Positions 3,579 through 27,656 of a stretch of DNA of 64,000 nucleotides are shown piece by piece. Position numbers and translations under genes: made by a program. The DNA is taken from the IMG/VR virus record IMGVR_UViG_2910596823_000004; one strand, 5' to 3'. Positions within the stretch are counted from its first letter, which is position 1. Every line of letters starts with the position of its first letter. Origin of the DNA: a virus (Duplodnaviria; Heunggongvirae; Uroviricota; Caudoviricetes). The notes beneath the pieces were generated by a model that saw nothing but the letters and a program-made list of their open reading frames with translations, searched no databases and was not told the origin of the DNA.

Positions 3579-4478
3579 TTATGCCGGTAATGCAATTTCA
3601 AGAGGTTTATTCAAAGGCTGTTTGTCGAATGCCAGCAGTGGCAGCGTGTCCGGCAGCTGACGACCAAAGTCCGGGTTTCGGTACACGCCATACAGCGGAG
3701 ACGTGAAGCTCAGGTTGTGAATGTCCTTGAGCAGCTTCACGATGCTGGCCTCGTCCACCAGGCTGTCGGCAATGTCCTGAATCGTCGTGCCACGATTACG
3801 CCCGGCTTTGGCCAGGGAACTGTTCTTGTGGTAGTCAGCGACCAGATCACGCAGCGCACGACGACGGCGAGACTCACTCATGGCGAACAGCTCTTTGACG
3901 ATCGCTTCGTTGTCGCCAGGGTCAGAACGGAAATGACGCTGGAAGACGCGCAACGCACTCTCATAGCTCTTCGGACGCTCCGGACGGATGAACTGGAACC
4001 CTGCTTTCATGGCGAACGGGTTGTATTTGCTCATCGACGACTGGATCTCGATGATTGGCCGGTCGTGCATCCTGCTAACCAGGTTAATCATTCGATAGGA
4101 GACGCCGACACCGCGGTACTGAGTGTCAACAACGGAACGGCTGATCACGGCAAAGTTGTTGTTCACGTACCGGCCCCAATACTGGTTGGCCACGGTGGTA
4201 TTGGTGGTTGGCTTCAGCTTAGGAAACATGCGATGGCGAGGCGCCAGCAGCAGTTTCGGGTAAGCCATAACCACGACGCCCACCAGCCGGTCGTCCAGTT
4301 CGCAGCGATAATACGTTGGCGCGAACGGCTTACCATCCGTCTTGTAGTGCAGCGACTTCAGCGCGTGCCAGTCTTCAACCGTGCCTTTGGTAACGGTCAT
4401 ACGCTCCAGAAAGTCCAGATGACGCGGGAACTCTTCCGGGCGGTAGCGTTTGATGATGATGCCTGTCATGTCGATCAC
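3579..4478 (-). CDS. Hypothetical protein (299 aa). The central segment VVDTQYRGVGVSYRMINLV looks like GNAT motif A.
   Basis: Long ORF, tightly packed with its neighbours. Confidence 0.45.
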   Translation of the reverse strand: MIDMTGIIIKRYRPEEFPRHLDFLERMTVTKGTVEDWHALKSLHYKTDGKPFAPTYYRCELDDRLVGVVVMAYPKLLLAPRHRMFPKLKPTTNTTVANQYWGRYVNNNFAVISRSVVDTQYRGVGVSYRMINLVSRMHDRPIIEIQSSMSKYNPFAMKAGFQFIRPERPKSYESALRVFQRHFRSDPGDNEAIVKELFAMSESRRRRALRDLVADYHKNSSLAKAGRNRGTTIQDIADSLVDEASIVKLLKDIHNLSFTSPLYGVYRNPDFGRQLPDTLPLLAFDKQPLNKPLEIALPA

Positions 4479-4729
4479 CTACGCTCGATATTGGCATTGA
4501 TGAAGTCCAGGCGAAGCGATTCCATCGCCCCAACCATGACGTATGGACGCCCACCGTTATGCCAGCAATCCAGCACACTGCCGTCGTTGTTGATCATCAG
4601 CAGTGCCAGGCTCTGGCTTTTGCCTTCTCTGGCGTACTGGAGTGCTTCTTCCAGCAGGCGGATGACTTCAACGTTGTTGTTGTCAGCCTCTTTCGATGGC
4701 TTCAGCTCTACGATCTTCAAATCAGGCAT
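4475..4729 (-). CDS. Hypothetical protein (84 aa)
   Basis: ORF overlapping its neighbours by 4 nt and 8 nt (operon coupling). Confidence 0.4.
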   Translation of the reverse strand: MPDLKIVELKPSKEADNNNVEVIRLLEEALQYAREGKSQSLALLMINNDGSVLDCWHNGGRPYVMVGAMESLRLDFINANIERR

Positions 4730-5360
4730 ATTCCACCTTCACGCGTTCTTTGTAGTGCTTGGTGATCTGCATATCCGGGCGCAGCGCGTTCTTCAGGTCT
4801 TCGTGGGTCGTCGCCACCATTACCGTCGCACCAACCTTACGGGCGGCACGCTGGAGGTTCGACGCCACAACCTGGGCGGTTACACGGTCGAGAACAGCGC
4901 CAAATTCGTCGGCAGCCCAGACTTTCGCGCCGGACTCGATCAGCTTGGCGATCTTGAGACGGTATTTCTGGCCGTCAGACATCTCGGATGGCTTACGCAC
5001 AAAGAGATAGGCGTCGTTCAATCCGGCCATAGACAGCAGCCCCAGCGCTTCGCTGGTGGTTTTGCCCAGCTGGTCAATGACGTTAACCTCATTGTCGAAG
5101 GCAAAGTCATCGATGGAGGCTACAGAAAGCCCTTCATCCTTCATCTGGCGTTGCAGCTCGCGCAGCACAACGGATTTACCGGAACCGGATTGGCCGGTGA
5201 TGTACACCACGTCGCCCTGCTTCACTTCCAGCTCCAGATTGTCGTAAAGCGTCCACTCTTTTTCGTCCAGACCAAGACCGAACGATTCGGCAATCTCCAG
5301 CGTGCGCGTGGTTTTGTTCACGCGGGTCTGAAACGATACGTTGATGGTGTATTTGCTCAT
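4722..5360 (-). CDS. Minimal ABC-type ATPase
   Basis: Walker A GQSGSGKS, ABC signature MSDGQKYRL, Walker B VWAADEF, H-loop TTHE. Its start overlaps the upstream ParB-like gene (ATGA). Confidence 0.6.
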   Translation of the reverse strand: MSKYTINVSFQTRVNKTTRTLEIAESFGLGLDEKEWTLYDNLELEVKQGDVVYITGQSGSGKSVVLRELQRQMKDEGLSVASIDDFAFDNEVNVIDQLGKTTSEALGLLSMAGLNDAYLFVRKPSEMSDGQKYRLKIAKLIESGAKVWAADEFGAVLDRVTAQVVASNLQRAARKVGATVMVATTHEDLKNALRPDMQITKHYKERVKVEYA

Positions 5361-24978: not shown

Positions 24979-25387
24979 TTGGATTCCATTCAGTGTCAGA
25001 AAGAGTTGCGGCTGGCTTGGCCAGCCGCCTTTTGGCGTTCCATCCTGGAACAGTACCTAACCGGTACTTCGTCATCCTGACGAACGGTAAGATACCTGAT
25101 TTAAAATGATAGGTAAATGCTTACTTATTACTTTGTGACAAAAATCCAATATCACGCTTGTGAGGCATATCAGATGCGGAGTAGACGGCGATCATAGTAG
25201 GCCGTTCATTAGATCGGCTTTGAGAGCGGATTGGACCAAACCCTAGATAGCGAGAGAGCACGGTGCTAATACCCGGTCACGTCACCAGCCAGGCGACAAC
25301 AGATGAGTTCATGGCAACATTTCGGAAGGTATCTTCGTATCATTATGTGGTTAAATATACATAATTTAACCCAATGGAATTTTAGCC

Positions 25388-25990
25388 ATGCTAGCCTTCT
25401 GGCACGAAAATTCAGACCTCATCTCCGCATTTTTAGCAGCTCTTTTAGGTGGCTTTTTCACGATGCTAGGAGTGACAACTCAGGTGAAACAGCAAGCAAA
25501 ACAGCAGGCAACAGCGGCCAGAGAGAAGCGTATAACAACGCTATTGGGTGTCAGAGAGGAAATAGACTCACTGATTAAACTGTATCAGGCCAGAATGGCA
25601 GAAGAACTCAAAAAATACGACCAGAACTCACCGTTCGATAACATTTTCCCCATTACTCAAAACTACTTCACGTTCTATGAAGCCAACTCGGCATCCCTAC
25701 CTGAAGTTCATAGAGAAACACTCTCAAAAATTGTGGCTTTTTATACAAGCGCAAGAAGCCTAATTGATTCCTATCGCGGTAATAATGCACTTATCGAACG
25801 GCTGGACTCCACGCAGGTTGCAAGTGACATTACTGGCAACAAAGAGCATCTTGCACACCTGAAAAGATACACCATCCTAGCCACAAAGTACGGCCGCGGA
25901 TTAATGATGATTCATGAAGAGGTCATGCTGCGCTATAAACAGGTTATAGAAGCCATCGATGGTGAAATCTCACAGTTACAATGCAGTTAG
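25388..25990 (+). CDS. Membrane-anchored hypothetical protein (200 aa; N-terminal TM)
   Basis: ORF on the opposite strand, inside an apparently lower-GC island. Confidence 0.45.
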   Translation: MLAFWHENSDLISAFLAALLGGFFTMLGVTTQVKQQAKQQATAAREKRITTLLGVREEIDSLIKLYQARMAEELKKYDQNSPFDNIFPITQNYFTFYEANSASLPEVHRETLSKIVAFYTSARSLIDSYRGNNALIERLDSTQVASDITGNKEHLAHLKRYTILATKYGRGLMMIHEEVMLRYKQVIEAIDGEISQLQCS

Positions 25991-26187
25991 CACTACAATC
26001 TGTCCGCATATTACTCGACGCGGTCGGGCTTAACGGGCTGAAGATCCACTGTGAGCGAGAAGATGACTGTTACGCGTTGAAGTTAATTGTATTACTTAGG
26101 TAAACATTATCATTTTCCAGACGTTAAGTTGTATCTTTGATAGGATTAAAAAAGGTATAGATAGCTTATGTTACTGAAGGAATAAAA

Positions 26188-26997
26188 ATGACAAAAATTA
26201 GTGAACGATGGAAGCACAATGGCATTACTAAAGGTTATTGCAATATTTGTGGAAAATTTGACTTGCTCACAAAGGATCATGTCCCTCCAAAGTGCGCCAT
26301 AACCTTAGGTCCTGTCCTTCAGAAAACAGTTAGCGAATTTTTTAATGCTCAGGAACCAGTTAAACCGTTAAATGCTAAAAACGGATCTTATTTCAGAACT
26401 ATTTGCAGTCACTGCAACAATAAGGTGTTAGGTGGGTTCGATGTTGCAATTGAAAATGTAGCAAACTCCTTTAAAGAACAGTTGAGTCAATATATGAATG
26501 GTACGAATGTATATCCATTCATTAGAATACCTTTTGATAGCATATCTTTCACTAAGGCTATGATTGGACACGTGCTATCAGCAACTTCAGTTGAAGATTG
26601 TAAAAAAGAACCCGTACACAGCCTCTTCTATACACCTTTAAAGGATTATGTTTTGGGTAATAATCCAAGTTTTGAGGAAACTCATGATATTTACTACTGG
26701 TTTTACCCACACAGAATGCACATATCCGCTCAAAGTGTAGCATTTATGAACGAAGGACATGTGGCATTTATTTGTGCTTTACATTTTTTCCCTATCGGGT
26801 TTATTATCACAATGAAAAATGAAGGAACATACCCTGCCCACTCAACAAAATTAGATCTTGAAGATAAATTCCTTACATTTAATATGACCTCTATAAATTA
26901 TGAGTATACGACATTTCCATTTGTAAATCTTAAGGGAAACCAAATGTATGCTATAAGCAACGGCCATACTTGTGTTAGTTATCCAATAATTAAGTGA
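26188..26997 (+). CDS. HNH-endonuclease-domain protein (269 aa)
   Basis: N-terminal CNICGKFDLLTKDHVPPK ... CSHCNN, i.e. a Cys pair, DH and a second Cys pair in an HNH-like arrangement. The C-terminal ~180 aa are unassigned. AT-rich codons. Confidence 0.5.
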   Translation: MTKISERWKHNGITKGYCNICGKFDLLTKDHVPPKCAITLGPVLQKTVSEFFNAQEPVKPLNAKNGSYFRTICSHCNNKVLGGFDVAIENVANSFKEQLSQYMNGTNVYPFIRIPFDSISFTKAMIGHVLSATSVEDCKKEPVHSLFYTPLKDYVLGNNPSFEETHDIYYWFYPHRMHISAQSVAFMNEGHVAFICALHFFPIGFIITMKNEGTYPAHSTKLDLEDKFLTFNMTSINYEYTTFPFVNLKGNQMYAISNGHTCVSYPIIK

Positions 26998-27656
26998 CAG
27001 CTAAATTATACAATCAACGCATGTTCACGTTTTACATATACCATCGATAATGTCCGCTCTTGGCACATTGAAGACATTACGATGCGCGATTTTTTCCCTC
27101 GCGCGTGTGCGCACGCGTGCGTGTAAATATTAAAAATTTTTATTAGAAAAGAAAAACTTACTTCCCAGAACAGGTTTTAATAAAACCTGAACTGAACGAA
27201 CGAAGTGAGTGAAGTTCACCTCGAACGAAGTGAGAGGTTGTCTTTTCAGGTAATACTCTCCCAGGGAGGTGAGTACAAAATCTCCTCACCAACCTGGTCG
27301 TTACATAACCTGAAAAGTTATGACCTAAGTCTACTGCCAGCTTAGGCTTGGGAAGTTATGGATGACAGCACCCCAGAACCGAGATCTTCCCACACTTTAT
27401 GAAGGGGAGTACTGGATTCAACCTCTCGAAATACTCCAGACTCGACAATCATAAAGTGACCCTTCTCTCCGCTCACTTTGGTTCCCCCTTCCCCAACCCC
27501 TAAGCGGTGCCGGTTCTACGCTGGTAGTGAGCTTTTTTAAACCTGACGCCAGTGACGCTATCCCCCACCCATCAGGTCGAGCTGCCGGAATCAATCCGGA
27601 AAGCGAGTGGATTTTATCACTGGCGATCTGCGTTTTAAATGGTAAGTACTTACCGA

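Follow-up and report, generated by a model that had tools for sequence, protein, structure and literature searches.

Two separate gene cassettes, one carrying a candidate phage-exclusion nuclease, in a variable slot of an SSU5-like phage-plasmid

When two neighbouring genes run together against the direction of the genes around them, do they form one system, or have they merely come to lie side by side? The question is raised by a stretch of 64,000 nucleotides of a tailed virus (IMG/VR record IMGVR_UViG_2910596823_000004), called the window here. On its plus strand, ORF-A (25388..25990) and ORF-B (26188..26997) sit amid minus-strand backbone genes, just as a preliminary description of this DNA had reported. 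That description went on to pair them, with a membrane sensor serving an HNH nuclease. The pairing is not supported: each gene is a module of its own, and the two differ both in where their homology ends and in where they occur. We think it rather more probable than its opposite that they are two independently acquired single-gene cassettes in a variable slot, where B is a stand-alone enzyme and a candidate phage-exclusion nuclease, and A is independent of it.

The window itself is, judging from sequence comparison, an SSU5-like phage-plasmid. SSU5-like phages and plasmids match it on both flanks, with the middle replaced. The backbone homology stops at 25193 and restarts at 27048-27090, and in SSU5, Cyrano, PhiR41_1 and ST13-OXA48phi12.3 the slot is filled by a gene for RNase HI. 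The composition of the insert is deviant: the GC content, 0.508 over the whole window, falls to 0.451 in module A and to 0.346 in module B, and the GC3 of ORF-B is 0.30. Presence or absence among collinear relatives, deviant composition and an orientation of their own are the marks of morons and hotspot cargo, and A and B bear all three. The low GC and the accessory character that had been proposed are both borne out, the cargo being horizontally acquired and in a variable slot. Consensus scans upstream of A or B gave no convincing sigma-70 site, and those after A or B no intrinsic terminator, the counts in each case not exceeding those in shuffled sequence.

The borders of the cassette are not where they had been placed, at palindromes near 25108 and 27641. 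The perfect palindrome GGTAAGTACTTACC (27641..27654) belongs to a window-wide motif, which occurs 13 times (allowing up to 3 mismatches) against about one expected; its copy at 25112-25125 is a 3-mismatch match. The homology breakpoints lie elsewhere, and we rejected it as a cassette border. Likewise, a structured non-coding stretch does follow ORF-B, as had been said, but it is no part of the cassette. Approximately 600 bases after B are non-coding, and they fold more stably than shuffled sequences on both strands (z = -5.2 and -5.0); the strongly folding element at 27090..27600 (minus strand, uncertainly assigned) is conserved SSU5-type backbone, outside the cassettes.

Where, then, do the cassettes begin and end? 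Homology to module A runs from 25211 to 26062, with its right end at 26062-26072 across all other contexts. Module B (26102..27067, plus strand) shares 93-95% of its nucleotides with P2-like, lambdoid and plasmid contexts; a long form begins at 26037-26045. At these limits lie versions of two inverted repeats of 22-24 bases, hp1 (GTCCGCTyyTGGCACrrAGCGGAC) and hp2 (TCCGCTnTGAGCGArAAGCGGA). The left edge of module A carries a degenerate hp2-type motif, TCGGCTTTGAGAGCGGATTGGA (25214..25235, plus strand). Homology to Serratia and Cronobacter chromosomes begins here, at 25211-25214, and at this same edge Cronobacter has the canonical TCCGCTTTGAGCGAGGAACGGA, with related copies in Serratia and Dickeya. 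After ORF-A, at the junction of the two cassettes, stands a degenerate hp1-spacer-hp2 composite (26002..26066, plus strand), built of an hp1-like part at 26002-26025 and an hp2-like part at 26045-26066. At the right edge of the array (27052..27066, plus strand), the 5' half of hp1, GTCCGCTCTTGGCAC, is fused to the backbone sequence ATTGAAGAC. A complete hp1 follows B in pro147, in UMNK88 and in a plasmid (L014), and at three other loci (L003, L010 and L011) this backbone sequence is joined, likewise at TGGCAC, to different cargo.

Hundreds of junctions whose flanks are unrelated carry copies of hp1 and hp2. In many prophages, plasmids and chromosomal islets of enterobacteria, they mark the points where cassettes join. 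Covariation in their stems does not exceed that of shuffled controls, and on this negative test we rejected a structured RNA or a single-stranded DNA hairpin; their role, if any, is as DNA sequence. Rfam returned nothing relevant for the cassette region, the non-coding element or the canonical junction motifs, its only match being sok, beside some lambdoid copies. In the papers searched, neither the accession numbers nor the motif strings appear.

These motifs may have a part in cassette exchange. A larger proposal can be built on them, which is that hp1 and hp2 belong to an undescribed cassette system of the Enterobacterales. Here, recombination at sites of 22-24 nucleotides would shuffle defence and other conflict genes in an integron-like way, driven either by a recombinase acting in trans or by the recombination functions of phages; ORF-B would count among the most frequent cargoes, and would also be a new HNH defence of a single gene. 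The unit would be [hp2 - leader - gene(s) - hp1], and the joints of an array hp1-N15-19-hp2. Exchange would take place among lambdoid and P2-like prophages, phage-plasmids, plasmids and chromosomal spots free of integrases (for example icd and phn-nrdD). Clustering of the genes at 240 loci gave no recurring recombinase or integrase linked to the motifs, a tyrosine-recombinase-like gene of 200 aa, as in plasmid pC21A02010, lying near only two of them. We regard this proposal as possible but tentative, and its truth as a good deal less probable than its falsity.

The reading of B as a nuclease relies, of course, on the protein that it encodes. ORF-B specifies 269 aa, in which an N-terminal Cys4 zinc finger of HNH-like type (residues ~15-100) precedes a beta-rich C-terminal domain. 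Its motif is C18xxC21, D30-H31, C73xxC76-N77. In 220 sequences of the family, and down to ~25% identity, the residues C18, C21, D30, H31, P33, P34, C73, C76, N77, D85, G127, H128, W171 and P202 are 97-100% conserved; the four cysteines reach 99-100%, and D85, which lies eight residues past N77 along the helix, 99%. The HNH-type motif that had been noticed in the N-terminus is confirmed. The AF2 model (pLDDT 85.8, pTM 0.88) has strands at 24-32 and 67-73 and a helix at 74-103. D30-H31, at the end of the first strand, and an asparagine at the metal-ligand position (N77), at the start of the helix, are present as in a His-Me finger, and the cysteine pairs stand where those of a structural zinc site would, C18xxC21 before the first strand and C73xxC76 at the junction of strand and helix.

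The family is large and unnamed. It comprises 1693 representatives at E ≤ 1e-3, all of ~270 aa, or about 1700 clusters at 50% identity. In PHROGs, ORF-B falls in phrog_21495 (E 2e-187), a family without a name. Pfam gives nothing above threshold (HNH 11.4 bits against a cut-off of 21.4, HNH_5 10.9 against 27.5), although HNH_5 reaches a still sub-threshold 13.5-18.5 bits in six of ten distant members. Nothing is found in NCBIfam or PADLOC. Profile searches of PDB sequences, with the whole family or with the N-terminal module alone, produced chance matches only, and a structure search found no solved relative of the C-terminal domain. Bona fide HNH genes, sought among the retrieved loci for a profile-profile comparison, were absent there. 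NCBI attaches the names "chaperonin" and "metal-binding protein" to members of the family; these names are misleading.

Genes of this family occur in many places. Among 5426 complete E. coli genomes, 141 carry ORF-B. In P2-like phages it stands, without A, between the tail sheath and tail-fibre assembly genes, in the Z/fun slot that is known as the "phage exclusion" region of P2 (PMC3091744). It also follows directly after the portal gene gpQ in the gpQ-gpA interval of P2-like prophages, a recognised hotspot (PMC9122126, PMC13586616). A lambdoid prophage, a plasmid, a filamentous prophage and a P2 remnant likewise carry B without A, and B also occurs in chromosomal islets. In the window, as in the contexts examined of the P2-like Z-slot, lambdoid prophage and plasmid, it runs opposite to the genes around it; in the gpQ-gpA hotspot it is co-oriented with gpQ. 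Beside its homologues lie genes for Shedu SduA (E 3e-302), the PADLOC candidates PDC-S15 and PDC-S31, and DUF2726.

Such a distribution might be that of an HNH homing endonuclease of the free-standing kind, whose gene would selfishly invade intergenic sites of phage genomes with no benefit to host or prophage. The layout of B, with an N-terminal HNH-type module and a C-terminal domain of ~170 aa in a protein of ~270 aa, is comparable to that of free-standing HNH homing enzymes such as the T4 Mob proteins and I-HmuI, and near-identical DNA (the 93-95% given above) has indeed been inserted between conserved genes in phages of several unrelated kinds. However, these junction motifs and slots are also home to unrelated cargo other than nucleases (A, DUF4238, CdiI, GNATs), so that mobility seems to belong to the cassette context. 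Further, the antisense orientation of B and its much lower GC resemble those of a moron expressed in the lysogen, its sites include chromosomal islets and the border of a filamentous prophage, and a structure search gave no match to solved homing enzymes. A homing endonuclease is thus an unlikely account of ORF-B.

ORF-A is a different matter. As had been described, it encodes 200 aa with one N-terminal transmembrane helix; its only hydrophobic segment lies at residues 11-29 (mean Kyte-Doolittle 2.14), and a basic stretch comes after it. The protein has no named domain. Its remainder is predicted to be helical, and the AF2 model, made from the single sequence, is too poor (pLDDT 59.8) for a structure search or any statement of fold. 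The family is narrow and confined to the Enterobacterales, with 33 clusters in all (39-96% identical), and two strongly conserved motifs, FPITQNYFTFYE and ARSLIDSYRGNN. A scan of genome contigs for wider homologues yielded one locus. Neither Pfam, NCBIfam nor PADLOC matches ORF-A. PADLOC-DB v2.0.0 has in fact no family at E ≤ 1 for either protein.

ORF-A without B occurs in hundreds of plasmids and in chromosomes of Serratia, Cronobacter and Dickeya. What follows it there varies. In Serratia marcescens it is a HEPN_Toprim_N gene; in S. nevei, genes for a 261-aa protein, a PtuA-like (Septu-like) ATPase (PtuA E 7e-40) and a 224-aa protein; in Cronobacter, a DUF4238 gene; elsewhere in chromosomes, CdiI_ImmP, two GNATs, or nothing. 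Thus A and B each adjoin, separately and in other places, anti-phage genes (DUF4238, Septu-like PtuA, Shedu SduA, PDC-S15, PDC-S31). DUF4238 alone protects against T7 (PMC9122126).

We can now return to the notion that A and B are one abortive-infection or exclusion system, with the membrane protein as sensor or anchor and the HNH protein as executor. The two genes are, after all, adjacent and co-oriented, and one lineage of SSU5-like elements, represented by at least 24 contigs, has stably kept them together. A two-gene system would be expected to co-occur across unrelated backgrounds, but this juxtaposition is found only in that lineage. It appears in 0 of 72,556 plasmids, 0 of 50,697 phages and 0 of the 5,426 E. 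coli genomes. On plasmids and in chromosomes, A is as a rule not accompanied by B, and B is without A in the 141 E. coli genomes and in 53 viral loci. Within the window, the limits of A and B are independent, a junction motif lies between them, and the intergenic gap is 198 nt. Nor does any other partner gene for B recur: neighbour clustering over the 53 viral loci found no common neighbour family, save for backbone genes confined to particular phage groups. Small transmembrane proteins are encoded just upstream of diverged B homologues at three loci (10 nt at L053 and L054, 6 nt at L057), and these leave some room for a membrane partner of B. They have, however, no sequence similarity to A. 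That A and B make up one system is accordingly improbable.

Improbable, too, is a purely zinc-binding, non-catalytic role for B, as a regulator or as the "chaperonin" or "metal-binding protein" of its database names, in a region unrelated to nucleic-acid cleavage: the names, the sub-threshold HNH scores and the want of a solved structural relative would suit it, but such conservation of the D-H dyad, N77 and D85 would be unexpected in a purely structural zinc ribbon, and the chaperonin link finds no match in Pfam, NCBIfam or the PDB.

The favoured reading, that of two independent cassettes, suggests the following picture. Each cassette carries its own leader and is bounded by copies of hp1 and hp2, and the adjacency of A and B would reflect the stacking of cassettes, not partnership. 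In B, the N-terminal beta-beta-alpha zinc finger would be an intact HNH-type centre, where D30-H31 may act as the general-base dyad, N77 (possibly with D85) may provide metal ligands, and C18, C21, C73 and C76 would hold a structural zinc. The novel C-terminal domain presumably selects the substrate. Expressed from the lysogen, B would cut invading phage DNA, possibly modified DNA, in a role akin to that of the exclusion genes Z/fun, old, tin and DUF4238 in the same P2-like slots. The protein of cassette A, membrane-anchored and helical, would work alone, acting at the membrane in exclusion or abortive infection.

Several things follow. The ORF-B family, with its ~1700 clusters, has no curated model and yet recurs in those slots of P2-like and other prophages that house exclusion and defence genes. 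Should it protect against phage, it would add a compact nuclease system made of one gene, with a new domain for choosing the substrate. The correction of a "sensor plus effector" reading is relevant to the automated calling of systems in hotspots. Finally, cassette limits at a conserved motif offer a testable handle on the rapid swapping of defence genes between mobile elements, and on the entry of these genes into chromosomal spots without mobility genes, a question that is open in the field.

How do these elements compare with those already known? Like REP/BIME elements, hp1 and hp2 are short inverted repeats between genes, conserved in sequence and numerous, often placed right after stop codons, and coincident with rearrangement breakpoints. 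They appear to depart in sequence from the REP consensus of E. coli; the copies are co-oriented, not alternating, and are concentrated at accessory-cassette junctions on mobile elements of several genera. Like integron cassettes, the units here have an ORF with a conserved inverted-repeat element of ~66-70 nt at its 3' end, stack head to tail in the same orientation, carry variable cargo that includes defence genes, and lose sequence identity between contexts at the element. Unlike attC, however, the element is conserved in sequence and not in structure, the RYYYAAC/GTTRRRY boxes are not kept (by eye, the flanking AAC...GTT is lost), ORFs of both orientations lie between copies, Rfam has no match, and no integron integrase was found at the 240 loci. 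With the R boxes not kept and intI not found, we rejected attC as their identity. As for ORF-B, McrA, the HNH type IV restriction endonuclease of the e14 prophage, is among the closest known systems. The exclusion genes of the P2 Z/fun and gpQ-gpA slots (old, tin, DUF4238) differ from B in that it is unrelated in sequence to their PADLOC models, and in that it resides here in an SSU5-like phage-plasmid, replacing an RNase H gene. Like them, however, B is a single gene, variably present, of low GC, and housed in the same slots of P2-like phages.

ORF-A (25388..25990, plus strand, 200 aa) and ORF-B (26188..26997, plus strand, 269 aa) stand between neighbours that run on the minus strand. SSU5-like phage-plasmids match the window on both flanks. 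In SSU5, Cyrano, PhiR41_1 and ST13-OXA48phi12.3, the minus strand at this slot has, in order, the genes for a 164-aa hypothetical protein and RNase HI, a non-coding stretch of about 570 nt, and the genes for a 76-aa hypothetical protein and a Dam-type methyltransferase. Here, the RNase H gene is missing, and the genes for A and B are found in its place. Pairwise blastn places the end of backbone homology at 25193, and its restart at 27090 against SSU5 or at 27048-27053 against plasmids with other cargo. By the same method, module A extends over 25211-26062 and module B over 26102-27067; a longer form of module B, starting at 26037-26045, occurs in lambdoid prophages. The window as a whole has a GC content of 0.508, compared with 0.451 for module A and 0.346 for module B; the GC3 of ORF-B is 0.30. 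The preliminary description of the two genes was thus correct in its protein lengths, strand, transmembrane segment and HNH-type motif, and right in its idea that they are accessory cargo.

Its choice of borders did not hold. The palindrome GGTAAGTACTTACC, proposed as the border on both sides, lies outside the homology breakpoints and is a window-wide motif, with 13 copies at three or fewer mismatches (1194, 6726, 13049, 20838, 25112, 27641, 28699, 35506, 40241, 49901, 50229, 52279 and 56007), where about one is expected. The two copies that were checked, at 25112 and 27641, both fall outside coding sequence. The motif may serve the phage-plasmid in regulation, as an operator or as a site associated with promoters.

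The non-coding stretch that follows ORF-B was rightly called structured, but it is not part of the cassette, since it is conserved backbone. This element of about 500 nt (about 27090-27600, SSU5-type backbone) shows almost no variation among nine SSU5-like elements of five genera, in contrast to its diverging flanks. The folding z-score is about -5 for both strands, compensatory changes are seen in 8 of 147 predicted pairs, and Rfam returned no match. An alternating purine-pyrimidine tract, cgcgcgtgtgcgcacgcgtgcgtg (27096-27125), is Z-DNA-prone and differs in length from one SSU5-like relative to another (alignment columns 540-562). In the compared locus L001, SSU5_090 (4222-4986), a "putative ribonuclease H," is annotated with 254 aa, against 195-197 aa in other relatives; its start codon was probably miscalled, since the extra N-terminal part overlaps the conserved element.

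Are A and B, then, a pair? Module A (92-94% nucleotide identity) is found in many SSU5-like plasmids of Enterobacter, Citrobacter and Salmonella without B. There, ORF-A is followed by a 106-aa unknown protein (pCAV1741-110, L003), an orphan CdiI immunity protein (pN16S089-2, L011), two GNAT acetyltransferases (pMS-37c, L010), or a DUF2254 plus betT block (p1_020038, L012). Module A is also present in chromosomal islets of Serratia, Cronobacter and Dickeya. In Serratia marcescens, it lies between a permease and nrdDG, and is followed by a HEPN_Toprim_N protein; at the same spot in S. nevei, it is followed by a 261-aa protein, a PtuA-like ATPase (E 7e-40) and a 224-aa protein. In Cronobacter, it adjoins icd and precedes a DUF4238 protein. 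No gene follows A in Dickeya, where it adjoins a 1964-aa helicase-nuclease, or in a diverged copy that follows sopAB in a different phage-plasmid.

Of 5426 complete E. coli genomes, in turn, 141 have module B (93-95% nucleotide identity) without A, and it lies at 120 sites in chromosomes and 29 in plasmids. In the P2-like phage pro147 and a P2-like prophage, B lies between the tail sheath and tail-fibre assembly genes; in the UMNK88 lambdoid prophage, it lies between hokD and replication genes. Elsewhere, it sits beside a small integrase and a DUF2254/BCCT block (a plasmid), at the end of a P2 remnant (Serratia), or next to a filamentous prophage (Vibrio). Clustering of the neighbours of 53 viral B loci gave no common family, except for phage backbone genes that are restricted to certain phage groups.

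No record among 72,556 plasmids, 50,697 phages and 5,426 E. coli genomes contained both A and B. The exact B protein does accompany A in one lineage: at least 24 contigs, about 100-110 kb long, all built on this backbone. Because A occurs without B, and B without A, across many contexts, the proposal of a membrane sensor joined to an HNH nuclease in one system is unsupported. The best-supported view is that A and B are two independent hotspot cassettes. Small transmembrane proteins do lie 6-10 nt upstream of diverged B homologues in three compared loci (L053 5278-5991, L054 5284-5991, L057 5317-5973). These show no similarity to ORF-A, and may act as partners in these lineages or be there by chance.

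As a protein, ORF-A has one strongly hydrophobic segment of 19 residues (11-29, mean Kyte-Doolittle 2.14), with a basic stretch after it. The remainder is predicted to be helical, and a single-sequence AlphaFold model was poor (pLDDT 59.8). Searches of ORF-A returned no domain match; its family is narrow, with 33 clusters in Enterobacterales that are 39-96% identical and share strongly conserved motifs. In small variable islets, A is repeatedly the first gene, and the other genes are of defence type (DUF4238, Septu-like, HEPN/Toprim); DUF4238 has been validated against T7 (PMC9122126). A role for ORF-A in membrane-level exclusion or abortive infection is a plausible conjecture.

ORF-B corresponds to phrog_21495, an unnamed family, and had no match above threshold in Pfam and none in NCBIfam or PADLOC. 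The family is large and uniform. A word-index search gave 91 clusters, named "chaperonin" or "metal-binding protein" at NCBI, and an exhaustive profile search gave 1693 representatives at E<=1e-3, nearly all of about 270 aa and matching end to end. The name "chaperonin" looks like a propagated annotation error, as no Pfam, NCBIfam or PDB relationship was found. Fifteen positions are 97-100% conserved in 220 members: C18, C21, D30, H31, P33, P34, C73, C76, N77, D85, G127, H128, W171, P202 and P244. These include the motif residues C18xxC21, D30-H31 and C73xxC76-N77.

An AlphaFold model built on 33 sequences was confident (pLDDT 85.8, pTM 0.88). In it, a strand (24-32) ending in DH is followed by an inserted helix, a second strand (67-73) and a helix (74-103) that opens with CxxCN; as modelled, this is the order of elements in the HNH beta-beta-alpha zinc finger. 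In HNH enzymes, for example Cas9 (D839/H840/N863) and McrA, an Asp and the Asn of the helix are the metal ligands, and the His serves as general base. Sub-threshold matches to HNH and HNH_5, obtained with ORF-B and with 6 of 10 distant members, give weak but consistent independent support. Given this layout and these matches, we call ORF-B HNH-like and probably catalytic, rather than a proven member. Its C-terminal domain (about 105-269, with H128 and W171 invariant) has no solved relative. Residues 191-209 (26758-26814), the hydrophobic HVAFICALHFFPIGFIITM (mean Kyte-Doolittle 1.9), are modelled as a buried beta-hairpin, not a transmembrane helix; a reading from hydropathy only could take them for a membrane span.

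What might such an enzyme do? Between FI and G, P2 carries Z/fun, which is annotated as phage exclusion; in other P2-like phages, genes gained by horizontal transfer are known from this region (PMC3091744). Diverged B homologues immediately follow the portal gene gpQ, with gpA a few kb off. The gpQ-gpA region is a recognised defence hotspot, as is a site among the tail genes (PMC9122126, PMC13586616). Other homologues adjoin Shedu SduA (E 3e-302), PDC-S15 (FRG domain), PDC-S31 (DUF2971) or DUF2726. With the Z/fun slot, the gpQ-gpA hotspot and these neighbours, defence or exclusion is the leading reading for B, through guilt by association. This uncharacterised, widespread HNH-like enzyme can reasonably be put forward as a candidate single-gene exclusion system of a new kind.

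The breakpoints of both modules coincide with a pair of motifs, hp1 (GTCCGCTyyTGGCACrrAGCGGAC) and hp2 (TCCGCTnTGAGCGArAAGCGGA), frequently joined as hp1-N15-19-hp2, a composite of 66-70 nt just 3' of a stop codon. In the window, module A has a degenerate hp2 at its left edge (25214-25235), the A/B junction has a degenerate hp1-hp2 (26002-26066), and the 5' half of hp1 (27052-27066) is fused to the backbone. The same TGGCAC point joins the backbone to three different cargos in SSU5-like plasmids. Cronobacter has the icd 3' end with hp2, A, hp1-hp2, DUF4238, hp1-hp2; Dickeya has DUF3916, hp1-hp2, A; UMNK88 has backbone with hp2, B, hp1, backbone; and pro147 has B, hp1, backbone. The pair also marks junctions in L003, L004, L006, L010-L016 and L084, and in more than 240 scanned loci. 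Some loci are arrays, with several co-oriented copies 0.5-3 kb apart and ORFs in either orientation between them.

The exact hp2 pattern occurs in more than 120 stretches each of IMG/VR and JGI metagenome contigs. Among the 121 viral matches listed, there are 83 distinct contexts, and among the hp2 matches listed a single left flank meets eight or more different right flanks. The right flank cgcccgcatagcgtaaacaggcgtc of a DUF2254 plus BCCT/betT block (L012 5076-5829; L014 6897-7037; adjoining ORF-B in another plasmid) is joined through hp2 to at least seven left partners, ORF-A included; non-defence cargo thus uses the same junctions. Covariation in the stems was not above shuffles (87.8% of cells paired, equalled by 90 of 500 shuffles). 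Conservation therefore lies in the sequence, two inverted repeats of the form 7-N10-7, rather than in a proven hairpin. No Rfam family matches hp1 or hp2, and no paper in the library searched contains these strings, although the repeat could be described under another name. Of everything observed here, this junction motif is the most unusual, and it is offered as a lead. No recombinase recurs near it in 240 loci. A 200-aa tyrosine-recombinase-like "site-specific integrase" (L014 5301-5903, plasmid pC21A02010) is divergent from an hp2/ORF-B cassette, and a viral contig (L177 14212-14487) carries the second tyrosine-recombinase-like gene near the motif, two loci in all. At these two loci only, the layout of a recombinase gene divergent from the cassette resembles that of an integron.
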